From a virus (Duplodnaviria; Heunggongvirae; Uroviricota; Caudoviricetes), in IMG/VR virus record IMGVR_UViG_2541047847_000005: DNA of 38,375 nt. One strand, 5' to 3'. Position numbers and translations under genes: made by a program. The notes beneath the pieces are model-generated. The model saw only the letters and a program-made list of their open reading frames with translations. It ran no database searches and had not been told where the DNA came from. Positions 1-15,834 of the stretch are shown here, in pieces (position 1 is the stretch's first letter; each line of letters starts with the position of its first letter).

Positions 1-1026
1 ATGAAAAAGATGATGATAGCCACACTGGCTGCCGCCAGCGTGCTGCTTGCCGTTGCAAATCAGGCGCATGCTGGCGCGACGCTTGATGCCGTTCAGAAAA
101 AAGGTTTTGTGCAATGCGGGATCAGTGATGGATTACCTGGGTTCTCTTATGCCGATGCTGACGGTAAGTTTTCAGGTATTGATGTAGATGTTTGTCGTGG
201 TGTTGCCGCTGCTGTATTCGGTGACGATACGAAAGTGAAATATACCCCGCTCACTGCAAAAGAACGCTTCACCGCTTTACAGTCAGGGGAGGTGGATTTG
301 CTCTCCCGTAATACGACCTGGACTTCATCTCGCGATGCCGGGATGGGAATGGCATTTACTGGCGTCACTTATTACGACGGCATTGGCTTCCTGACGCACG
401 ATAAAGCGGGGCTAAAAAGCGCGAAAGAACTGGATGGCGCTACCGTCTGTATTCAGGCGGGGACTGATACCGAACTCAACGTCGCCGATTACTTCAAGGC
501 AAATAATATGAAGTACACGCCAGTAACCTTCGATCGCTCAGACGAATCAGCGAAAGCTCTGGAATCAGGCCGCTGTGATACTCTGGCCTCGGATCAATCA
601 CAACTGTATGCCCTACGCATCAAATTAAGCAACCCAGCTGAATGGATTGTCTTACCGGAAGTTATCTCTAAAGAACCACTTGGGCCGGTAGTTCGTCGTG
701 GCGATGATGAATGGTTCTCGATTGTACGCTGGACGCTTTTCGCCATGCTGAATGCTGAAGAGATGGGCATCAATTCCCAGAACGTCGATGAAAAAGCGGC
801 TAATCCAGCAACGCCTGATATGGCACATCTGCTGGGTAAAGAAGGCGATTACGGCAAGGATCTGAAGCTGGATAATAAATGGGCCTTTAACATCATCAAA
901 CAGGTGGGTAACTACTCGGAAATTTTCGAGCGTAACGTAGGTTCAGAAAGCCCGCTGAAAATTAAACGTGGGCAAAATAATCTCTGGAATAACGGCGGTA
1001 TTCAGTACGCGCCGCCCGTGCGTTAA
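1..1026 (+). CDS. yhdW: periplasmic substrate-binding protein of an amino-acid ABC transporter (YhdW/AapJ-like)
   Basis: 341-aa ORF starting at position 1; N-terminal Sec signal peptide MKKMMIATLAAASVLLAVANQAHA; resemblance to E. coli YhdW recalled from memory, not searched; followed by a permease gene. Confidence 0.8.
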   Translation: MKKMMIATLAAASVLLAVANQAHAGATLDAVQKKGFVQCGISDGLPGFSYADADGKFSGIDVDVCRGVAAAVFGDDTKVKYTPLTAKERFTALQSGEVDLLSRNTTWTSSRDAGMGMAFTGVTYYDGIGFLTHDKAGLKSAKELDGATVCIQAGTDTELNVADYFKANNMKYTPVTFDRSDESAKALESGRCDTLASDQSQLYALRIKLSNPAEWIVLPEVISKEPLGPVVRRGDDEWFSIVRWTLFAMLNAEEMGINSQNVDEKAANPATPDMAHLLGKEGDYGKDLKLDNKWAFNIIKQVGNYSEIFERNVGSESPLKIKRGQNNLWNNGGIQYAPPVR

Positions 1027-1093
1027 GTCGGTGTGAGGTAACGAGCGTCGCTACGGCGGCGCTCTCTTCAGCGTTATGCTTTCCGAGGTTTCT

Positions 1094-1423
1094 ATGTCTC
1101 ATCGCCGCTCAACCGTTAAAGGCTCACTCTCTTTTGCCAACCCTACGGTTCGCGCCTGGTTATTCCAGATCCTTGCCGTTGTTGCTGTTGTCGGCATTAT
1201 TGGTTGGTTATTTCACAACACTGTAACGAATCTCAGTAATCGCGGCATAACATCAGGATTTGCTTTTCTTGACCGCGGGGCCGGTTTTGGCATCGTTCAG
1301 CATTTGATTGATTATCAGCAAGGCGACACTTACGGACGCGTTTTTATTGTCGGCCTGCTCAATACGCTACTGGTTTCTGCATTGTGTATTGTGTTCGCTT
1401 CTGTTTTGGGCTTCTTTATCTGA
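1094..1423 (+). pseudogene. yhdX: 5-prime fragment of amino-acid ABC transporter permease (YhdX/AapQ-like), truncated by prophage insertion
   Basis: ATG at 1094 preceded by GAGG; hydrophobic permease-like N-terminus; frame runs into TGA at 1421..1423 after only about 110 codons, and downstream sequence is phage-like. Confidence 0.6.
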
Positions 1424-1430
1424 TCAGACA

Positions 1431-1463
1431 TGAGATAAATGAAGGGGGATCCGTGAGATAAAT
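1431..1463 (+). repeat. two direct copies of TGAGATAAAT (1431..1440 and 1454..1463) at the prophage terminus; candidate transposase end-binding sites
   Basis: exact 10-bp direct repeat spaced 23 bp start to start, 10 bp inside the inferred end. Confidence 0.35.
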
Positions 1464-1616
1464 AACGAATTGGAGTGGGTTAACATGGGTTCTGGTGAAC
1501 AGAACTGAAATTCTTTTCCGCTATACGATAGATAAGTCGGGCATTGAAATCATCCTTCCTGGCAACTTAGAATCGAGTTTGCTGAAACATGACCCGCAAC
1601 AAAAAGGATGATTCCA

Positions 1617-1778
1617 ATGACTACTCAAAACAATAAGCATGATAGCCTGGATTACTCAGAAAAGCCCAAAAGCAAGCACATCGTGACGTTCGAGCGCGAT
1701 TCCGGTAGAAAAGGAGAATCGTCTTCCTCTGCCAATAAAACCACTATGCCGGCAGCCCCTGCCCCAGGGAAAAAATAA
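1617..1778 (+). CDS. hypothetical small hydrophilic protein (53 aa), doubtful
   Basis: ATG at 1617 with AAGGA 9 nt upstream; below the ORF-track cutoff; low-complexity Lys/Ser-rich product; convergent with the gene at 1782..2414. Confidence 0.15.
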   Translation: MTTQNNKHDSLDYSEKPKSKHIVTFERDSGRKGESSSSANKTTMPAAPAPGKK

Positions 1779-1781
1779 ACA

Positions 1782-2414
1782 TCATTCATCGTTCGTTGCA
1801 CGAACGCGCCTGATCTCCACTCTGGCAATCTGATCTGCTGGAATATAGGTTGCCAGAGCTCCCCAGTACTTATCAACCACGCCTTTATACTCTTCCCATT
1901 CGTTACTGCCTGAAGGGCTGCTGTGCGTGACGTAAAGAACCATATCGCCTTTATTCCCCAGGGTAAACGGACCGTTAGGCCACTCTTCAAAGTTCCCTGG
2001 CAGCCGTGACATCATACCGGAACCATCGCGAAGAATCACTCTGACCTCGGTAACGCTGAAGCCTGTTTGATCAAACATTGCCTGCCATGCTGAGCTGGTA
2101 TCGTCAGACCATGAAACATCATTATTCCACAGTAATCTGTACATCCATTTGCGACCGTACCTGCGCCACCACGCACCGCATGTAACGGCACACAGAAGTG
2201 CTGGTGGTGTTGCCAGCCAGGCATTCAGACCTGCCCACATAACAGCCTGGTAAGCCATCATTGCTGTCAGGCCAAAAATCAGCGAAGAAAAAGTCACCTC
2301 AATGGGCTTGTGGTGATCCTTCAGTCCCACATTCGCAATAAAATACCCAATATAGCCACTGGTCAGGGTCACCAGTGTTGCCCATGGCAGATTTAACAAC
2401 GAAACGTCAAACAT
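1782..2414 (-). CDS. membrane protein of unknown function (about 3 TM helices plus about 120-aa soluble C-terminal domain); terminal moron candidate
   Basis: ORF 1782..2492; preferred start is the ATG at 2414 (MFDVSLL...) with AGGGAG 5 nt upstream; hydrophobic segments LVTLTSGYIGYFIANVGL, FSSLIFGLTAMMAYQAVMWAGL, ALLCAVTCGAWW; lies after the early-operon terminator. Confidence 0.55.
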   Translation of the reverse strand: MFDVSLLNLPWATLVTLTSGYIGYFIANVGLKDHHKPIEVTFSSLIFGLTAMMAYQAVMWAGLNAWLATPPALLCAVTCGAWWRRYGRKWMYRLLWNNDVSWSDDTSSAWQAMFDQTGFSVTEVRVILRDGSGMMSRLPGNFEEWPNGPFTLGNKGDMVLYVTHSSPSGSNEWEEYKGVVDKYWGALATYIPADQIARVEIRRVRATNDE

Positions 2415-2452
2415 ATTTTCTCCCTGCATCCTGAATACTAAAGAGAGAGCAT

Positions 2453-2488
2453 AAAAAAAGCACGGTAAGGGGTCTACCGTGCTTTTAT
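2453..2488 (-). terminator. rho-independent terminator ending the early operon
   Basis: stem GCACGGTA / TACCGTGC with 7-nt loop (2460..2482); on the minus-strand transcript it is followed by TTTTTTTAT; on the plus strand by TTTTAT, so possibly bidirectional. Confidence 0.7.
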
Positions 2489-2528
2489 ACAATAAGGAGA
2501 TTTTTGAAAGGACTTTAACAAGCAGGAA

Positions 2529-2927
2529 TTATCTGGATTTGTTAACGTCTTTCGTCTCCTCTGGCAGATCTTCATCAAACAACCTGCCCTGCATCCGATC
2601 CAGTTCTTCTTTTCTGACCCGCTTAACCACGCTGTAGACCCACTGAAGCGAAACACCAAACTTGCGGGCCAGTTCGTGGTGGTTGCGTCCGTTAAACTCC
2701 CTGAAGATTTCCCGGTCGCGCTGACTGACCTTCCATACCATGCCCATCGGGAAATAAACGTTTTGCCCGCCCCAGACCTGCATCATTCGGTTCGCGACGG
2801 CCTGACCAATCTGGTCGGCAATTGCGGGCTCAATATCAATAATCTCGCGAACGGTCTCAGAGGTATGCTGTGCCAGCTCCACCAGGAGTTCCGGCCCTTT
2901 ACTTCGAAACTGATTCAGGTCGCTCAT
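2529..2927 (-). CDS. mor: Mor/C-family transcriptional activator of middle/late genes
   Basis: 132 aa; C-terminal motif FNGRNHHELARKFGVSLQWVYSVVKR matches the Mor/C family helix-turn-helix; last gene of the early operon. Confidence 0.7.
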   Translation of the reverse strand: MSDLNQFRSKGPELLVELAQHTSETVREIIDIEPAIADQIGQAVANRMMQVWGGQNVYFPMGMVWKVSQRDREIFREFNGRNHHELARKFGVSLQWVYSVVKRVRKEELDRMQGRLFDEDLPEETKDVNKSR

Positions 2928-3348
2928 GTTTTACTCCCGCAGCTCTGTGCTGCCACTTCTTCAGTTTCTCAATAACACTGCTTGCCTGTTCAGTATTGAG
3001 CCAGCGCAGGGCGCTGATGCCCGTTTCCCGCTTGATCCACCGCGCTAATGCATTTTCTGAACGGTCACGAACAATGCCGGCAGCAGCCATTTCAAGCCAT
3101 AGCGCACGAATTTTCCTGGACTGCGGATGGTTATCCAGCGGTAAACCGGAGCTGGCTTTTCTGGCTGGTTTAACGCGAAAGCCTTTCTTTTTCATGGATT
3201 CCAGCACGCAGTTTAGTTGTGTGGTATCCATTCCTTTGGTTGAGGCTTTACCGGTCAGCCCCTGTAACATCTGGCGGTAGGTGTCTTCATCCATACCCAG
3301 TTCATTACGGGCAATATGGATAAGCTGTATCAGGCGTTTTTTCTGCAT
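2899..3348 (-). CDS. gemA: GemA-like protein (Mu gp16 family)
   Basis: 149 aa; N-terminal QLIHIARNELGMDEDTYRQML motif typical of GemA; AGGAG 5 nt upstream of ATG; overlaps mor by 29 bp. Confidence 0.6.
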   Translation of the reverse strand: MQKKRLIQLIHIARNELGMDEDTYRQMLQGLTGKASTKGMDTTQLNCVLESMKKKGFRVKPARKASSGLPLDNHPQSRKIRALWLEMAAAGIVRDRSENALARWIKRETGISALRWLNTEQASSVIEKLKKWQHRAAGVKHERPESVSK

Positions 3349-3349
3349 A

Positions 3350-3556
3350 TCATCTCCTTTTTTTCAGTCTGTCGGCAACAATGTCGGTTGCAGCTGGCAG
3401 GGTGACTGGCCAGAACAACATGACGGCGGTCATGTACAGGATGTAATGCGCGGTGTCGTAGTGCCTGCCATAGCCCAGGGAACGATGAAGTCTTGCGCTG
3501 CATGATCCTGCGTACATATACCAGAAAAGAAAACAGACAATGGTTTCAGTAGTCAT
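3350..3556 (-). CDS. small membrane protein, hypothetical
   Basis: ORF 3350..3712, preferred start ATG at 3556 (MTTETIV...) with GGGGAGG upstream; hydrophobic. Confidence 0.4.
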   Translation of the reverse strand: MTTETIVCFLFWYMYAGSCSARLHRSLGYGRHYDTAHYILYMTAVMLFWPVTLPAATDIVADRLKKRR

Positions 3557-3776
3557 TCTGAATACCTCCCCATTCGATATGAATATTACGGGCAGCAATG
3601 ACAGGGTCGTTATTCCACCATGCACCTGACATGTATTTTTCAACCTGTTCGCGTCCGGCAATAACACCAATTGTGATCCCCGGCCTGACGTTCTTAAAAA
3701 AGGCGCGGGCAAAAAGGTATCTGGCAGATATTCGGCAGGCTTTTAATTTCCGGCTGTTACCTGATAGCGTAATCAT
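3546..3776 (-). CDS. hypothetical early protein (76 aa)
   Basis: ATG overlaps stop of the upstream gene (ATGA coupling at 3773..3776). Confidence 0.4.
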   Translation of the reverse strand: MITLSGNSRKLKACRISARYLFARAFFKNVRPGITIGVIAGREQVEKYMSGAWWNNDPVIAARNIHIEWGGIQNDY

Positions 3777-4456
3777 CTGGCCTCCAGTTTCTGTTGTTCC
3801 TGCCCACTGACCGGGCGGTGCAGTCTGACGTTCTGCCCTTCACGAAACCCCGCATAGCGCGAGGCGTCGCCATTGCGGCTTCTTCCCGGTTTACGCGCCC
3901 TGGTGGTTTGCGTCTGCGGGTATTTATGTTCCAGCCACTGTTGCATCAGTTCACGCTCATCATCGGTCAGGGCAAAGGACTGTATTTCACTGATAACGGC
4001 CAGTACCCAGCCTTCAGCAAACTGGTCTCCACGGCTGGTACGGGTGGCGTTTTTTATTCTTTTGTTCTGTGCGCTGATATACTGCTGACGCGCCTTTTTC
4101 AGCTGGCGGACCAGCACTTCCCAGGTGTACGCAGCCAGTGCCGCTCGTTCCCGGTTACCGTAGAACCCCACAGACGGATGCGTGCCGGGGTGAATGATGG
4201 AGTTAACACCAAATGCCTCGCGGATGATGTTCATCAGGCCCAGCATGTAGCGCGGTGGACGGAGACTGCCTGTCGGCCAGTAATGACTGATGGTTTCATC
4301 AATATCACTCATAGCAATGTCGGAATGTGTGATGCCGTGAACATCCATCAGTTTACGGGCTCGGCGCAGTGCCAGAGCGGCCTCGTGCGGGTTGCCGGAT
4401 GCGGCCAGCGCCAGCAACTTTTTCAGTTTCTCAATGTGTTTATTCTGGTCTGTCAT
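3773..4456 (-). CDS. hypothetical early protein with DUF2786-like N-terminus
   Basis: ORF 3773..4492, preferred start ATG at 4456 (MTDQNKHIEKLKKLLALAASGNPHEAALAL...) with GGAGA upstream; ATGA coupling with upstream gene. Confidence 0.5.
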   Translation of the reverse strand: MTDQNKHIEKLKKLLALAASGNPHEAALALRRARKLMDVHGITHSDIAMSDIDETISHYWPTGSLRPPRYMLGLMNIIREAFGVNSIIHPGTHPSVGFYGNRERAALAAYTWEVLVRQLKKARQQYISAQNKRIKNATRTSRGDQFAEGWVLAVISEIQSFALTDDERELMQQWLEHKYPQTQTTRARKPGRSRNGDASRYAGFREGQNVRLHRPVSGQEQQKLEAR

Positions 4457-4668
4457 TGTTCTGTATCTCCGGTATTTTTCTGCCGTTTCCATGCCCGGAC
4501 AGCGTCGGACAGCTCTTTCAGGCTGTATGCTGCTTTAAGCTTTTCCCATAACCACTGTGTTGTTATGTGCATCAGCAGGGCAGCCAGGGCTGCCCCCGCA
4601 CTGAGGCATGTCGCCAGGCCAGTAAGAATCAGTGTCCATGCGGTGATTTCCCTGAGTATGTCAGCCAT
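4453..4668 (-). CDS. small membrane protein (71 aa)
   Basis: GGGAGG upstream of ATG at 4668; one long hydrophobic segment. Confidence 0.4.
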   Translation of the reverse strand: MADILREITAWTLILTGLATCLSAGAALAALLMHITTQWLWEKLKAAYSLKELSDAVRAWKRQKNTGDTEQ

Positions 4669-4682
4669 TGAATGCCTCCCGG

Positions 4683-4979
4683 TTACTCGTTCGTGTAAAT
4701 CACGCCCAGTCGTGCAGCCAGACGTTCCAGTTTTTTCTGTTTGTGGAAGTCAATCAGCCGGTCCATCCCCTGAAGGCGCAGTTGCTCTGTCATGATTTCC
4801 ACGTCTGCCAGCTCTGCCGCGAGGTCACTTTCGCTGCCCTGTCCGTTCAGATTGCGGGCAGCACTGGCCGCCAGTTCAGCGGCCTCTTCTGTCAGTTTCA
4901 GGGCCTGTGCGTCCGGCCCGAAACGCTGCAGGGCCAGACGGTAGAGGGCGGTGCGGGTGAGTTCGGTGTTTCGTGTCAT
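4683..4979 (-). CDS. MazG-like nucleotide pyrophosphohydrolase-domain protein (tentative)
   Basis: 98 aa; EEAAEL ... AELADVEIM pattern resembles the EExxE...ExxD metal-binding motif of MazG-type NTP pyrophosphatases. Confidence 0.4.
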   Translation of the reverse strand: MTRNTELTRTALYRLALQRFGPDAQALKLTEEAAELAASAARNLNGQGSESDLAAELADVEIMTEQLRLQGMDRLIDFHKQKKLERLAARLGVIYTNE

Positions 4980-4988
4980 GCCGCGCCC

Positions 4989-5261
4989 TCAGTGCTTCCG
5001 GCTGACGGTGATGTGCAGGCCGCCTTCTGCAGTGGTTTCCATCCGGTACGGCACCTCATGCTCTGCCGTGTGGGTGAGTGTGTTCATCAGTACCTGCAGG
5101 GCAGCCTCCTTTCCGTTGGTCGCCACAATGGCCTGTGTGGCCATGCTGATTAGCGCCGTCAGGACGTGCTTCACATCGGTGAGGTCGCGGCATTCACACT
5201 CGTTGACATAGTGTTCAACAAGAGTTCGGGTGCGCTGTCGTGCTTCCTGTGGGGTAATCAT
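4989..5261 (-). CDS. hypothetical early protein (90 aa)
   Basis: AGGGAGG upstream of ATG at 5261; 4-bp overlap with next gene. Confidence 0.4.
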   Translation of the reverse strand: MITPQEARQRTRTLVEHYVNECECRDLTDVKHVLTALISMATQAIVATNGKEAALQVLMNTLTHTAEHEVPYRMETTAEGGLHITVSRKH

Positions 5262-5452
5262 TGCGCGTCCTCCCTGTCAGGGCGGGAGAATTCTATGACG
5301 GGCACGTCCGCCGAAAAATGCTGGCTGCAGTACGGGCAGACCAGGGTGACACGTACTGCAGGTATGTGATACTTACCGGACATCACGGCGATGGCGCTGT
5401 GAAAACGCAGGGCTGTTATATCCCTCTCGCACTGAATACATTTAAATATCAT
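5258..5452 (-). CDS. small zinc-ribbon protein (CxxC ... CxxC)
   Basis: 64 aa with CIQC and CPYC pairs; GAGGAG upstream. Confidence 0.4.
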   Translation of the reverse strand: MIFKCIQCERDITALRFHSAIAVMSGKYHIPAVRVTLVCPYCSQHFSADVPVIEFSRPDREDAQ

Positions 5453-5549
5453 AATTTAATTCTCCTCTGTTTCCGGCGTGCAGAAGCCCGCGGCGCTGAC
5501 GCCGGAATAAAAAAGAAAATGTTTTTATTAAATAATTAACGTGGTGTGT

Positions 5550-6080
5550 TTACTGCACATCCTGCTCAAAAGGAATTATTGAAAAATCCTCAATATCACT
5601 TTTTATGGTAATACCGGGAATATTTTTCACAGCCTCTTTTTCATTCAGAATGGCATCTTTATTTATTTCCTCCTTTACACGAATAAAGCGCTCAAGCCCC
5701 AGACGTCTCAGTAATTCAATAACATTATCCGCCCCGCGAATGCTGACTGACGGCGGACGGTTTCGCCACTGCACCTCGCCGGTGGTGAGGTTAGCGAACT
5801 TCACCTTCCCGTTGCCGGTCAGTTCATCACGGTGCGCCTCACACCATGTCTGGATACCGGACTGCAGTTCGGCCATGCGTTTTTTCAGGCTCTCGGTGAG
5901 CGGGGCATAACGTGCAGTGATGTCGCCAATGGTGTCATTCATTTCTGTTTCAGCCCTGACCAGTTCACGTTGCGCGTCACCAAGCAGTCTGATTCCCTCA
6001 ATGACCTCTTCGCGTGTCCCCGGCACCCAGAGTGCTGCTGCGGCTTTGATACGTTTTGCCCCTTTTGTACTTTTTGCCAT
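5550..6080 (-). CDS. gam: Gam-like host-nuclease inhibitor (Ku-like DNA-end binding protein)
   Basis: 176 aa; colinear with Mu Gam as recalled (RIKAAAALWVP, LVRAETEMNDTIGDIT, WCEAHRDELT, VKSDIEDFSIIPFEQ). Confidence 0.85.
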   Translation of the reverse strand: MAKSTKGAKRIKAAAALWVPGTREEVIEGIRLLGDAQRELVRAETEMNDTIGDITARYAPLTESLKKRMAELQSGIQTWCEAHRDELTGNGKVKFANLTTGEVQWRNRPPSVSIRGADNVIELLRRLGLERFIRVKEEINKDAILNEKEAVKNIPGITIKSDIEDFSIIPFEQDVQ

Positions 6081-7556: not shown

Positions 7557-9326
7557 TCAGTTGCCGTTAACAATGCTGATAACACTGCTGCTGGCCGGTG
7601 TGGTCAGCGTGGCCATGACTTCATCCAGTGCGGCTTCCGGTACGCCGTCCGGGTACTGTGCCGTTAACTGGCGGTAATGTTCCGGCGTCCAGGTAAGGCC
7701 GTCGGCGCTGAACTTATCGCGCAGGGCTTTCGCGGCCTCCACATGAGTCATGGGACGTTGTTCAGTGCGCGGCCCGCGTACGTCAGAGGCCTGACCACGC
7801 TTCGGCATATAGGCCGGAAGTGTGGTGTCGTCGATATGTTTATACGGGTCAAGCCGCCCGCCGAACGGCAGCGCCTTCGCCTTGCGTGCGGCGGCTGCAT
7901 CTGCGGCGTTGTCTGTACCGGTAACCAGCGCTTCAGTTTCTTTTGCCGCCATCTGTGCCGGGGTTTCCGGCAGGGCTTTGTAACTTTCGCCAAATACCGC
8001 CGCGCCTTCAGCAAAGCCAAACTCGTTCTTTCTGACCTCTTCGACCAGGAAGAACGTCTCGTGGCCGTCCTCACCGGTCAGAACCACCTGTGCCACATCG
8101 CTGCGCCATGGGTTACGGGTAATCATCAGTTTTTCACCAACCAGTACGCCCGGTACCGTTGATACGTCAAATTCAGTGCCCCGGAACGAGACACGAAGTT
8201 TTGGCGTGACTTTGCGGAGTTCTGGTGCCGCCACAGCCAGTTCACGACATACCTCAACGGAAGGCGCTTTTTTCAGCTGCTCAGCAGTAATCTTCAGCCA
8301 GATATCCGTGCGGGTTTTACCGTGGCGGCTGTGAACAGCCGTGGCGTTAAAGTGGCTGCGCCATTTCGCGGCCAGCGCGTTGAGTTCTTCCAGACTGTGA
8401 ACCGGCCGGAACTTCAGACCCGGCTCCAGCTTGCGTTCGATAATGTCCCGCGCCTTTTCCACCTGTCCGGTGGCGCGGGCGTTATGCGGCTTGTGCGCTA
8501 TCAGGTCAATGCCCAGTGAGCGGCACATGTTTTTCGTCATACCCGCGGTGTTTGCCGAGCCGGGGTCGAGATAGAGTATTTTTGGCACGCCGTGCAGCAC
8601 GTCTGCGCCGCCACGCTCCTGCATGGCGTTGATAAGCACAGAACACAGGTTCTCACCGGATTCCGCACCCGTCACATACTCAACGTAAATCCAGCCGCTG
8701 GCATGGTCGGTAATCTCATAACTCCACACGCGGTCACTGGCGATACGGGCAAGGTTAGCGGGCTTGTTCTTGTAGAATTTCGCGCTGTCCATCACCTGCA
8801 GCCCTTTGTGTCCATTGCTCAGGTAGTAAAGCGTGCAGAGCGAGGCATCAATCTGCCAGACGTGATTGGGATGCAGACTGGCCACTTCGGTATGCGGCGC
8901 AGGGGCATCCAGTTGTTCCGGGTGCAGGCCATAGTTACGCAGGGCACGGCTGATGGCATCTTCGGACAACGGGAAAAACTCACCGGTGGTTTCATCTGTT
9001 CTGCCTGCGGAGATAAAGCCGTTAGCCCGCAGGGTTTCCACTGCATCTGCGATGGAATAGAGACGCTTACCGTTCTTGCGGGTGGCCTCACGCAGTGTGG
9101 CAGATATCAGCGCGGCTTCGTCGCGGGTCAGGGCGCTGCGCCCGGCATCGGCGCGTTTTTTGCGTTTATCAGTCACAGAGACCTCCTTCAGCCTGCGCAG
9201 CAGAGTGGCGCGGGACATGCCAAGTTCAGCACAGGCAGCGTCGTATATTGCACCGCGTTTACCATGCCCCGCGTCACGTGCCGCGCGGGCGACATAAACC
9301 AGTCGTTCAGTCAGGGCAGCATTCAT
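7557..9326 (-). CDS. DDE transposase (Mu A-like, integrase-core fold)
   Basis: 589 aa; N-terminal HTH region; candidate DDE residues in WQIDAS, LYLDPGSAN and GQVEKARDIIE; GGAGG upstream. Confidence 0.85.
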   Translation of the reverse strand: MNAALTERLVYVARAARDAGHGKRGAIYDAACAELGMSRATLLRRLKEVSVTDKRKKRADAGRSALTRDEAALISATLREATRKNGKRLYSIADAVETLRANGFISAGRTDETTGEFFPLSEDAISRALRNYGLHPEQLDAPAPHTEVASLHPNHVWQIDASLCTLYYLSNGHKGLQVMDSAKFYKNKPANLARIASDRVWSYEITDHASGWIYVEYVTGAESGENLCSVLINAMQERGGADVLHGVPKILYLDPGSANTAGMTKNMCRSLGIDLIAHKPHNARATGQVEKARDIIERKLEPGLKFRPVHSLEELNALAAKWRSHFNATAVHSRHGKTRTDIWLKITAEQLKKAPSVEVCRELAVAAPELRKVTPKLRVSFRGTEFDVSTVPGVLVGEKLMITRNPWRSDVAQVVLTGEDGHETFFLVEEVRKNEFGFAEGAAVFGESYKALPETPAQMAAKETEALVTGTDNAADAAAARKAKALPFGGRLDPYKHIDDTTLPAYMPKRGQASDVRGPRTEQRPMTHVEAAKALRDKFSADGLTWTPEHYRQLTAQYPDGVPEAALDEVMATLTTPASSSVISIVNGN

Positions 9327-13650: not shown

Positions 13651-13780
13651 ATCGTATTCTCCTCTGTGAATAATTCATCGTTTATCCTGCACATCCCGTA
13701 TCCCCGGCTCTCTTAACGCGCTTTAAAATCCTTCGCGCCCTGTATTTGTGATGCTGTCTCCACCAGACAAGGAGACACAC

Positions 13781-14131
13781 ATGAAAAACCTGAAAAAATT
13801 CATTCCCCCTGTTAAAAAACCTCGCCTCAGCGGCTGGCTGCTGACCTCAGTGCTGTTGCTGGGCACCATCGCTCTGGTCTCGCCACAGCAGTTGCCTGTT
13901 GTGATCTACAAGCTGGCACTCATCACGCTGGCAGCAGTGCTGGGTTACTGGCTTGACCGTTCGCTCTTCCCCAAAGCCCGTCCCGGTCAGTACCTGAAAC
14001 ATGACGACAGGCTGATGGCTGAAGGGCGTTTCCCGGTACAGACCGGCCTTCACCTGGTGTTTTCTGCTGCGTTAATCCGCCGTGCACTGATTGTTGCAGC
14101 GGTCTGTCTGGCTGTTGCGATGGGGCTTTAA
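13781..14131 (+). CDS. holin-like membrane protein (first gene of lysis cassette)
   Basis: ORF 13748..14131, preferred start ATG at 13781 with GGAGA 5 nt upstream; about 3 hydrophobic segments; immediately precedes the endolysin gene. Confidence 0.5.
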   Translation: MKNLKKFIPPVKKPRLSGWLLTSVLLLGTIALVSPQQLPVVIYKLALITLAAVLGYWLDRSLFPKARPGQYLKHDDRLMAEGRFPVQTGLHLVFSAALIRRALIVAAVCLAVAMGL

Positions 14132-14133
14132 TC

Positions 14134-14871
14134 ATGAACTGGCCGCAGATCACCTGGATTGTATGCATGTCCCTGAAACTGGCTTTCGAAGCCTTTAGGG
14201 TCTTCATCAGAACCGAACGCCTGTCAGTCCGCGCCGGGACCTTTCTGGTTCATATGGCACGGGTATTCTTTGTCGCAATGTTGCTCTGGTGTGGCGGCTT
14301 CTTCAGTCAGGCCCGCGCAGCGCAGCCTCCGCAGGCAGCGCTGCAGTATCGCGATGATGTGATCCGTAATGCCCGGCTTGAATGGGGACTGTCTGCGCCG
14401 GTGGCTGATTTCGCTGCGCAACTGCATCAGGAAAGCGGCTGGCGACCTGATGCGATCTCGCCGGTTGGCGCTCAGGGACTGGCGCAGTTCATGCCCGCCA
14501 CCGCCGACTGGATAAGTCAGTTGATGCCGGGGCTTAACAGCCGTGAGCCATTTAATCCGGCATGGGCCATCCGGGCGCTGGTCAGCTATGACCGCTGGCT
14601 GTGGCAGCGCGTCAGCGCCGCCAGTGACTGCGAGCGTATGGCCATGACACTGTCGGGCTATAACGGTGGTCTGGGCTGGGTACAGCGGGACAGGCGGCTT
14701 GCATCACAAAAAGGGCTGGACAGCACCCGCTGGTTTGGTCATGTCGCCACGGTGAATGCCGGACGCAGCACTGCCAGCTGGCGGGAGAACCGTCATTATC
14801 CCCAGCGCATCCTGTTCACGCTGGCCCCGCGTTATCTCTCATGGGGAGGGGCAAGCTGTGTGGGTACGTAA
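14134..14871 (+). CDS. endolysin, lytic transglycosylase (SLT domain) with N-terminal signal or SAR sequence
   Basis: motif HQESGWRPDAISPVGAQGLAQFMP typical of SLT catalytic region; hydrophobic MARVFFVAMLLWCGGFFSQA near N-terminus; alternative start ATG at 14254. Confidence 0.8.
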   Translation: MNWPQITWIVCMSLKLAFEAFRVFIRTERLSVRAGTFLVHMARVFFVAMLLWCGGFFSQARAAQPPQAALQYRDDVIRNARLEWGLSAPVADFAAQLHQESGWRPDAISPVGAQGLAQFMPATADWISQLMPGLNSREPFNPAWAIRALVSYDRWLWQRVSAASDCERMAMTLSGYNGGLGWVQRDRRLASQKGLDSTRWFGHVATVNAGRSTASWRENRHYPQRILFTLAPRYLSWGGASCVGT

Positions 14872-15511
14872 GTTACGGTCGCTGCCGTGGCGGGTCATTA
14901 TGCTGGCCATTCTCCTGAACACCTTCCTGCTGGCGATCTGGTGGCTGGGATACAGCACAGGCCACGACCGGGCCTCCGCTGACGGTCAGGCGGCGCTCAG
15001 CCGCCTGCAGGCGGATTTTGACGGATACCGGGCAGAACAGGCCCGGCGTGAGGTGGCGGCGTTGCGCGCATGGTCTGAGCGTTATCAGGAGCAGGTAGCC
15101 GCCGGGCAACGGGCTGAAGCTGGTTATCTTGAGCAGATTGCTCAACTGGAGGACCAGAACAAACAACTACAGGGGCAAATTAACGATGTCACACAGCGCT
15201 GGATTGATGAAAAAGGTAAGAGCCATCCCATTGAGTGCGTGTTTACTCGCGGTTTCGTGCGCCAGTACAACGCCGCACTCGGATACGACAACGCATCCGT
15301 CGACACCGGTCATTCAGACTCAGTTGCCGCCGCTGGCACCGGCACTGGCGCAGCGACCGGGCAACCTGAAACCGCTGACGCCCGGTTACGCAATTCGGGT
15401 GTCTCCCAGCTTGACGTCCTTGCCAACATCATCGACAACGCAGGGCAATGTCGTCGCTGGCGAAACCAGATAAACGCGCTACTGGATGAACGGGAAGGAT
15501 TACAGAAATGA
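14858..15511 (+). CDS. i-spanin (Rz-like)
   Basis: ORF 14756..15511, preferred GTG start at 14858 with GGGGAGGG upstream; N-terminal TM segment then coiled-coil-like periplasmic domain. Confidence 0.6.
   Translation: MWVRKLRSLPWRVIMLAILLNTFLLAIWWLGYSTGHDRASADGQAALSRLQADFDGYRAEQARREVAALRAWSERYQEQVAAGQRAEAGYLEQIAQLEDQNKQLQGQINDVTQRWIDEKGKSHPIECVFTRGFVRQYNAALGYDNASVDTGHSDSVAAAGTGTGAATGQPETADARLRNSGVSQLDVLANIIDNAGQCRRWRNQINALLDEREGLQK
15207..15473 (+). CDS. o-spanin (Rz1-like lipoprotein) embedded in i-spanin gene
   Basis: ORF 15129..15473 in the +1 frame inside the i-spanin gene; from ATG at 15207 gives MKKVRAIPLSACLLAVSC lipoprotein signal followed by a Pro/Thr-rich mature part. Confidence 0.55.
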   Translation: MKKVRAIPLSACLLAVSCASTTPHSDTTTHPSTPVIQTQLPPLAPALAQRPGNLKPLTPGYAIRVSPSLTSLPTSSTTQGNVVAGETR

Positions 15512-15834
15512 CACTGCAGGTTGAATTCTGGACGGTGGTGAGTTTTTTGCTCACCTTCATGGGGTTTGTGGGAGGGCTCGCCAAATGGTTGTTCAGTAAA
15601 ACAGAAGAACGCCAGGCGGCACGATTCGCCTCCCTTGAGCAGGCCCTGCAACAGTCCGCCTCCAACTGGGGCGAACTGGAAAAAGAATTTATGCGATTTA
15701 AAGCGGATTTACCGCTGAATTATGTCCGTCGCGAGGATTATATCCGTGGCCAGACAGTCATCGAGGCCAAACTGGACGCACTCTACAACAAACTGGAAGT
15801 GGTACAGCAGTACCGCAATACCGGAGGTCAATAA
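15508..15834 (+). CDS. membrane-anchored hypothetical protein (108 aa)
   Basis: N-terminal TM segment then charged helical region; position between lysis genes and terminase. Confidence 0.45.
   Translation: MTLQVEFWTVVSFLLTFMGFVGGLAKWLFSKTEERQAARFASLEQALQQSASNWGELEKEFMRFKADLPLNYVRREDYIRGQTVIEAKLDALYNKLEVVQQYRNTGGQ

Follow-up and report, generated by a model that had tools for sequence, protein, structure and literature searches.

In the transposable phage BcepMu (Bcepmuvirus), the early region is inverted, Mor is the last early gene beside the genome end, and no gene lies between mor and that end. The same early-region layout is present in the element described here, a BcepMu-like (Mu-like) transposable prophage that occupies position 1421 onward of a 38,375-nucleotide (nt) stretch of DNA (IMG/VR virus record IMGVR_UViG_2541047847_000005, Caudoviricetes; the whole stretch is referred to as the window). 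Unlike BcepMu, however, the enterobacterial lineage carries an acquired cassette of 1.1 kb between mor and the end. The cassette comprises a gene for a membrane protein of 210 amino acids (aa) and, convergent with it, a gene for a small proline-rich protein. Comparison of homologous loci showed, at the level of gene content, that the two genes form a conserved mobile accessory module that is co-inherited in very distant bacteria. What is new is the pairing, the fold, and the mobility pattern; both genes were already known from deposited sequences annotated as hypothetical protein.

A comparable pair has been described in Pseudomonas stutzeri ATCC 14405, in which three novel proline-rich small proteins are encoded beside a DUF6338 gene (locus Pstu14405_RS12030) (PMC10433244). 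The peptides, two of which are MVSS...APPPPKK and MTKK...VQGGVNKETTSQRPSAPPSAPPPPPKKGG, were detected by digest-free mass spectrometry with 44–114 peptide-spectrum matches and are abundant in healthy cells (PMC10433244). The authors of that study held them to be species-specific to P. stutzeri and raised an antimicrobial role. The P. stutzeri small proteins, which end in PPPPKK or PPPPPKKGG, share the pattern VQG..N..T..RPS.PP with the alphaproteobacterial partners of the present family, although their genes are co-directional and triplicated and not convergent. The pairing reported here ties these unexplained abundant proteins to a general system and makes two hypothetical proteins one defined two-gene unit.

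Co-inheritance of the membrane-protein gene and a proline-rich partner

In the homologous loci, a small open reading frame (ORF) on the opposite strand stops within a few bases of the membrane-gene stop codon or overlaps it by at most 20 nt. The arrangement was scored automatically as a convergent hydrophilic ORF with at least two Pro among its last 12 residues, with the ends of other ORFs in the same loci serving as controls. Such an ORF was detected in 26 of 32 loci versus 4 of the 370 control ends (p = 4e-31 by Fisher's test, a value obtained from loci that are phylogenetically non-independent). Two extra pairs, in L066 and L067, whose small ORF overlaps the stop codon by 17–20 nt, were found by eye, and three additional loci also contain the small ORF, giving a total of 31 paired loci out of 35. 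The paired loci range over Enterobacterales, Alphaproteobacteria, and metagenomes, and the identity of their membrane proteins falls to ~30%.

In the window, the small gene is located at 1617..1778 (plus strand) and encodes a hydrophilic, disordered protein of 53 aa (MTTQNNKHDSLDYSEKPKSK...MPAAPAPGKK), with its stop codon 3 nt from that of the membrane gene. The original prediction had listed this convergent ORF as a possible one. It is indeed present and can be regarded as a real gene on the basis of its conserved promoter, its Shine-Dalgarno sequence, and purifying selection. The sigma-70 promoter TTGAAA-N18-TAGAAT (1544..1573, plus strand; 10/12 matches in the promoter scan) is followed by the conserved Shine-Dalgarno sequence AAGGA (1604..1608, plus strand). 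The -35 element TTGAAA, the -10 element TAGAAT, and the Shine-Dalgarno sequence AAGGA(T) are kept in the window and in eight related prophage ends from Citrobacter, Serratia, Symbiopectobacterium, Salmonella, and Klebsiella. In close pairs, the ratio of non-synonymous to synonymous change (pN/pS) of the small gene is 0.13–0.34, i.e., synonymous change is three- to seven-fold above non-synonymous, indicating that the small ORF is translated and under purifying selection. The 53-aa protein matches PHROG 15726 over its full length, and at least 1000 contigs carry it under the annotation hypothetical protein.

The 35 small products examined are 33–62 aa long and consist of 16% Pro and 10% Lys, with almost no hydrophobic residues. 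They are built of short linear motifs, namely [Y/F/H]xP (one to three copies) and a C-terminal tail of the PPxPKK type, rich in Pro and mostly basic; the Pro-rich tail is found in all 35 proteins, and Lys or Arg occurs within the last four residues in 30 of them. The [Y/F/H]xP motifs are 2.8-fold enriched (38 observed versus 13.6 expected), and the observed count was reached in none of 1000 shuffles. The window protein reads ...LDYSEKPKS...MPAAPAPGKK, the Citrobacter protein ...VEYSENPKS...TPPAPLGKK, and the Bradyrhizobium protein ...GNHIPTTNERPSTPPPSPKKK, while those of IMG/VR phages read ...GNYTPTTNETPAPKPPGK and ...GNFRPDTGKNTSEAKPPAPKKK. The enterobacterial small proteins carry only a degenerate DYSENPK motif.

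The copy number and the neighbors of the small gene vary among the loci. Two or three tandem paralogous Pro-rich small ORFs are present in L071 (1961-2405, minus strand), L077 (4156-4600, minus strand), and P. stutzeri (CP036186.1, 2666728-2667116). In Bradyrhizobium/Afipia loci, a third conserved gene is located 0–3 nt upstream of the small ORF (L002, 10802-11272; L022, 6789-7313; L025, 6791-7342; and L027; all minus strand). Its product (156–183 aa), for which Pfam gave no match, carries ...FDDxPLGGFFMF... as an N-terminal motif, and the gene apparently forms an operon with the small ORF. A serine recombinase gene precedes the membrane gene in these loci.

Predicted fold and family of the membrane protein

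The membrane-protein gene (1782..2414, minus strand) extends from an ATG at 2414 to a TGA at 1784..1782 and encodes 210 aa, as originally estimated. The AGGGAG ribosome-binding site noted earlier is likewise present (2420..2425, minus strand, as read from the sequence), 5 nt before the ATG and 32 nt past the T-run of the upstream terminator, and purine-rich Shine-Dalgarno-like sequences are found at the same position in the homologous loci. A 236-aa extension of the ORF from a TTG start was considered and ruled out, since M1 is aligned and conserved across all 33 homologues.

Hydropathy analysis revealed three transmembrane (TM) segments at ~11–28, 37–60, and 65–83, and an N-out/C-in topology is predicted from the charge distribution, i.e., a neutral/acidic N-terminus and the sequence RRYGRK after the third segment. 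In an AlphaFold2 model based on the 33-sequence alignment (predicted local distance difference test score, pLDDT, 84), helices span residues 11–28, 37–60, and 65–97, and a beta-rich domain spans residues 119–205. The three TM helices and the soluble C-terminal domain proposed at the outset are thus both recovered. The product is predicted to sit in the inner membrane through three TM helices, which lead into a basic juxtamembrane helix and, on the cytoplasmic side, a small Sm/LSm-like beta-barrel (residues 119–205). In the model, this domain has the arrangement that defines the Sm/LSm fold: it opens with a helix, continues into a five-stranded antiparallel sheet with a strong bend, and can be superposed on Sm proteins. 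Foldseek hits of the barrel to Sm/LSm-type domains are weak (E 0.06 or worse, with identities of 8–18%) and include LSM14 bound to the 4E-T peptide. Unlike the divergent, peptide-motif-binding LSm domains (LSM14-4E-T and EDC3) and the SH3-like small beta-barrels, the window domain is membrane-anchored. Among the loci, small-protein tails of the type PAP[LG]xKK pair with the barrel variant NGPFTLGNxGD (window, L015, L016, and L009), and tails of the type PP[PS]R pair with the variant GxFVLGNEKD (L021, L055, L047, and L049).

The membrane protein matches PHROG 12870, a family without assigned function, over its full length. A word-indexed search retrieved 72 relatives, mainly from Enterobacterales; Bradyrhizobium and Allosphingosinicella contributed more distant ones. 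An exhaustive profile search retrieved 522 cluster representatives at 50% identity (E <= 1e-3), mostly proteins of 200–215 aa, and nearly all of the 150 listed representatives are 196–258 aa long and align over their full length. The family thus exceeds 500 clusters at 50% identity in bacteria and phages, and neither of the two genes has an assigned function. The sole match in a phage record is a protein of Synechococcus phage Ssp-JY41 (29% identity), whose gene is located at the extreme end of the record. A profile search against PDB sequences returned nothing below E 0.6, and neither the window proteins nor six relatives matched PADLOC-DB v2 at E <= 1.

The uncharacterized Pfam family DUF6338 (PF19865) comprises proteins of ~170–220 aa in which TM helices at the N-terminus precede a soluble C-terminal region, a layout that the window protein fits. 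The window protein itself differs in having no match to the DUF6338 hidden Markov model (HMM), even at E <= 10. Sub-threshold hits were obtained for 12 of 57 diverse members of the family (E <= 0.01, model positions 30–144); the best relatives scored 22–26 bits, and none reached the gathering threshold of 26.5. One member, P0052, is labelled 'DUF6338 family protein' by NCBI. On these profile comparisons, the membrane-protein family is a distant sub-threshold sister group of DUF6338. DUF6338 is without known function, so no mechanism can be derived from the comparison. A second profile protein search, performed with a diverse alignment, retrieved no bona fide DUF6338 protein, and the P. stutzeri gene is therefore linked to the family by the sub-threshold HMM hits and the shared small-protein motif.

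Distribution, expression, and possible function

The original prediction had likened the gene to the morons, i.e., accessory genes of temperate phages. Its distribution supports this view and speaks against a core lytic gene. Prophages of Citrobacter, Serratia, Klebsiella, Salmonella, Symbiopectobacterium, Pantoea, and Arsenophonus invariably show the order mor, terminator, membrane gene, and prophage end. BcepMu, in which mor lies 364 bp from the genome end, has no homologue, KP12 has a different 109-aa ORF after mor, and a membrane-protein homologue is absent from all 69 phage records that hold a transposase homologue. In unrelated phages, distant homologues (37–43% identity) are located after capsid/connector genes, between capsid and terminase or tape-measure and tail-tip genes, and after portal/MuF or terminase/portal genes, and one adjoins a CI-like S24 repressor. 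Outside phages, the neighbors are serine recombinases, copies of the insertion sequence (IS) IS1595, an HNH nuclease, and a methyltransferase, as well as Abi_alpha, reverse transcriptase plus DUF2326, and DUF4411 plus M78 genes. The G+C content of the cassette is 47.5% versus 54–55.5% for the backbone, and that at third codon positions is 0.52 in the membrane gene versus 0.64 in mor and the transposase gene, which is a modest difference. These comparisons support the view that the membrane gene is accessory cargo. The gene had also been taken for the last one before the genome end, which did not hold: the small ORF, its promoter, and the end repeats intervene.

The early operon was expected to end at a strong terminator, and an intrinsic terminator of the early (mor) operon is indeed found at 2446..2486 (minus strand), with a 13-pair stem (2486..2456) and a T7 tail reaching ~2446. 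Its predicted folding energy is -19.1 kcal/mol (z = -7.3) on the minus strand and -16.7 kcal/mol on the plus strand, and it is flanked by A7 upstream and a T-rich stretch downstream; the terminator is probably bidirectional. A hairpin and T-run are present between mor and the membrane gene in all nine enterobacterial loci (9/9), with varying hairpin sequences. An Rfam scan of 1300..2700 gave chance-level matches only. For the membrane gene itself, no sigma-70 promoter was found in a minus-strand consensus scan, and no shared -35/-10 elements were found in nine aligned intergenic regions; an extended -10 element directly past the T-run (TGtTACTAT / TGtTACAAT) occurs in Symbiopectobacterium and Pantoea only. 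A Mor-dependent promoter motif was sought by k-mer comparison with the late-operon upstream regions and was dropped, as only short, inconsistently spaced matches were obtained. In several unrelated phages, the membrane gene lies 1–29 nt behind a same-strand upstream phage gene. Since no conserved promoter was found and these gaps are short, co-transcription with an upstream phage operon is the simplest reading, and the membrane gene may be transcribed with phage operons instead of from the repressed prophage. The stops of the two genes are 3 nt apart; thus, neither transcript can end between the genes, and the small-gene RNA must cross the membrane gene antisense, possibly reaching the bidirectional terminator. 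Mutual interference is therefore predicted.

Divergent LSm domains and SH3-like barrels commonly bind proline-rich linear motifs. We tentatively favor an explanation that appears possible but falls short of probable, namely that a membrane effector is regulated by the small protein and that the two-gene cassette, which is probably accessory cargo and no part of the phage's own life cycle, functions in phage exclusion or defence. The small protein would be made constitutively in the lysogen from its own promoter, and its transcript would run antisense through the membrane gene up to the bidirectional terminator, while the membrane gene would be transcribed at a low level via terminator read-through from the upstream phage operon. 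The proline-rich motifs of the small protein would bind the beta-barrel and thereby regulate the membrane protein, which would act on the envelope, either by excluding incoming phages or by holin-like permeabilization, in phage-host or phage-phage conflict. Neither gene would be needed for the phage's own replication. The distribution of the cassette nominates it as a candidate phage-exclusion/defence module, and the pair may represent a natural bacterial case of a membrane-tethered LSm/SH3-like barrel that reads proline-rich linear motifs.

Several points weigh against this explanation. The window proteins gave no significant hit in Pfam, NCBIfam, or PADLOC and are without functional annotation, and the membrane gene has no recognizable promoter, as described above. 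Four loci (L019, L020, L054, and L059) contain an intact membrane gene without the small gene, and in three others (L026, L027, and L029) an intact small gene stands beside a frameshifted membrane gene; therefore, the partnership is not obligatory for viability. The association with defence islands is supported by a handful of loci. The covariation of tails and barrel variants may reflect coevolution, or shared ancestry alone. Finally, we infer the binding of the small protein to the barrel purely from the ligands of LSm- and SH3-like barrels and from the presence of LSM14-4E-T among the Foldseek hits.

The membrane protein alone could be a factor for superinfection exclusion or lysogenic conversion, the roles named at the outset, which would be expressed in the lysogen and block DNA entry in the manner of SieA, Imm, or gp15, with the small ORF being incidental. 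The membrane location, the strong ribosome-binding site, the terminator that insulates the gene from the early operon, the accessory distribution, the prophage-end position, and the four loci with a membrane gene but no small ORF agree with this idea. Indeed, the known morons and superinfection-exclusion membrane proteins (P22 SieA, T4 Imm, HK97 gp15, and lambda RexB) are likewise small membrane cargo of temperate phages, bounded by terminators, variable among relatives, and inserted between conserved phage genes. The window protein differs from them in showing no sequence or fold similarity, and its gene in having a convergent small-protein partner and no identifiable promoter of its own. Homology to SieA, Imm, gp15, or Cor was not detected by PHROG category, PADLOC, or fold match. 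The co-inheritance of the small ORF in 31 of 35 loci down to ~30% membrane-protein identity does not fit an incidental partner, and the 1–29 nt spacing behind late genes in other phages, together with the lack of a conserved promoter, suggests lytic co-transcription; we regard exclusion or lysogenic conversion by the membrane protein alone as unlikely, and either function as such as plausible. A role in lysis timing, with the three-TM, N-out/C-in protein being holin-like and the small protein acting as an antiholin-like inhibitor so that the pair tunes membrane permeabilization in lytic growth, is suggested by the class I holin topology, by weak Foldseek matches to LydA-type and other holins (E 0.01–0.6), by one family member that matches Phage_holin_9 at 5.6e-4, and by the orientation of the gene with, and often tightly behind, phage lytic operons. 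However, class I holins are three-TM proteins of fewer than ~150 aa encoded in a lysis cassette beside the endolysin, from which the 210-aa window protein departs, and its folded 110-aa cytoplasmic domain is atypical of holins. The weak holin matches are limited to generic TM hairpins, the phage has its own lysis cassette beside an SLT transglycosylase ~11 kb away (~13748-15834, according to the PhiKM annotation), and the two-gene cassette also occurs outside phages beside recombinases and IS elements. This role is rather improbable.

The disordered, constitutively promoted small partner, the convergent or overlapping transcription reminiscent of type I systems, and the presence of the cassette on mobile elements beside other toxin-antitoxin and Abi genes raise the possibility of a toxin-antitoxin or addiction module that stabilizes the element; the membrane protein would be the toxin and the labile small protein and/or the antisense transcript the antitoxin. 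In type I systems, however, the toxin is a small hydrophobic peptide and the antitoxin an RNA, whereas the small product here is hydrophilic and under purifying selection. The loci with a lone intact membrane gene, together with those in which only the small gene is intact, reveal no strict dependence either way, P. stutzeri has its small genes in three co-directional copies, and no toxin-antitoxin family was matched. A strict toxin-antitoxin relationship is unlikely, and the module as a whole has a low probability of being of this type. Least probable of all is that the small proteins are themselves effectors akin to the insect proline-rich antimicrobial peptides, which act on the ribosome exit tunnel or DnaK, and that the membrane protein is their receptor, exporter, or immunity factor. 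The motifs SYTPKP, THIPRPSP, and TYIPDS appear similar to the YLPRP / SYLPRPTPP core of oncocin and pyrrhocoricin, and the [S]Y-x-P-[KR]-P motifs in general seem reminiscent of the YLPRP core of the insect peptides. The 2.8-fold enrichment of [YFH]xP over shuffles, the loci with several tandem small-gene copies, and the antimicrobial role raised by the authors of the P. stutzeri study (PMC10433244) point in the same direction. However, healthy P. stutzeri cells contain the peptides in abundance, the peptides persist where the membrane gene is broken and are thus without strong self-toxicity, neither a signal peptide nor a dedicated transporter is present, and the enterobacterial versions have the degenerate motif only. 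A broader proposal, no more probable than the lysis-timing role, is that the pair represents a widespread unrecognized two-component class on phages and mobile elements, in which short intracellular proline-rich proteins with SYxPKP-like motifs and a PPPPKK tail would act via a membrane-anchored LSm-like receptor, sensing or perturbing the translation or chaperone state and coupling it to a membrane response in infection.

In L026 (~3020-5860), a locus in a Bradyrhizobium metagenome-assembled genome, the frameshifted membrane gene adjoins genes for a reverse transcriptase (RVT_1) and a DUF2326/AAA protein, and the whole resembles a defence island.

Prophage terminus, insertion site, and neighboring genes

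Positions 1..1420 of the window are Escherichia coli chromosome and contain a gene for a periplasmic amino-acid-binding protein, which we take to be yhdW, and the 5' part of a neighboring permease gene, presumably yhdX. The permease gene (1076..1423) is cut by the prophage insertion, so that 115 codons remain, which presumably leaves this strain without a working transporter. Identical copies of the prophage occupy many differing chromosomal sites in other E. coli genomes, and the similarity to the window always begins at 1420/1421. The phage end was accordingly placed at 1421, where it reads TGATCAGACATGAGATAAAT, and the occurrence of identical copies at different sites indicates that the element moves by transposition. 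Its transposase (7557..9326, minus strand) shares 68.5% identity with BcepMu gp09 and 93–99% identity with those of the Bcepmuvirus-like records PhiKM and KP12. The full region 1421-2520 was found in 118 of 5,426 complete E. coli genomes (~2%); strains 83972 and M-17 are among the E. coli with an identical end.

The early operon points outward and closes with gemA and mor near the genome end. It includes the genes for Gam (5550..6080), a DUF2786/DUF7168 protein (3773..4492), GemA (2899..3348; PF06252, 1e-40), and, as the last early-operon gene, the Mor-family transcription activator (2529..2927; PF08765, 1.1e-43), all on the minus strand. The nearest phage record, PhiKM (PQ738613.1, 20200-21129; L012), which is described as a 'partial genome', splits from the window at 2569, within the 3' end of mor, and continues into a gene annotated as 'Fe2+ ABC transporter permease'. 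This divergence is probably a host junction or an assembly artefact, so the record is uninformative on the presence of the cassette.

The prophage terminus (1421..1543, not assigned to a strand), delineated by the comparison of insertion sites and an alignment of 11 prophage ends, consists of the terminal TG, two repeats, and a plus-strand hairpin. The direct repeats CATGAGATAAAT (1429..1440) and CGTGAGATAAAT (1452..1463) lie just inside the terminal TG and are kept in 10 related prophage ends with the consensus TGATCAGACGTGAGATAWWT ... CGTGAGATAAAT; they are probably transposase-binding sites. Between these repeats and the small-gene promoter, the terminator scan revealed a hairpin (1488..1506, plus strand) with a 7-bp stem, GGTTCTGGTGAACAGAACT, followed by a T-rich tail, which could block host transcription entering the prophage. 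The terminal ~145 bp of the prophage (1430-1574) also have unannotated counterparts of ~90% identity on many IncF/ColV-type E. coli plasmids. On plasmid pST95-32-2, the matching stretch adjoins IS3/IS1 remnants, and the plasmid stretches resemble fossilized solo ends of a related transposable phage.

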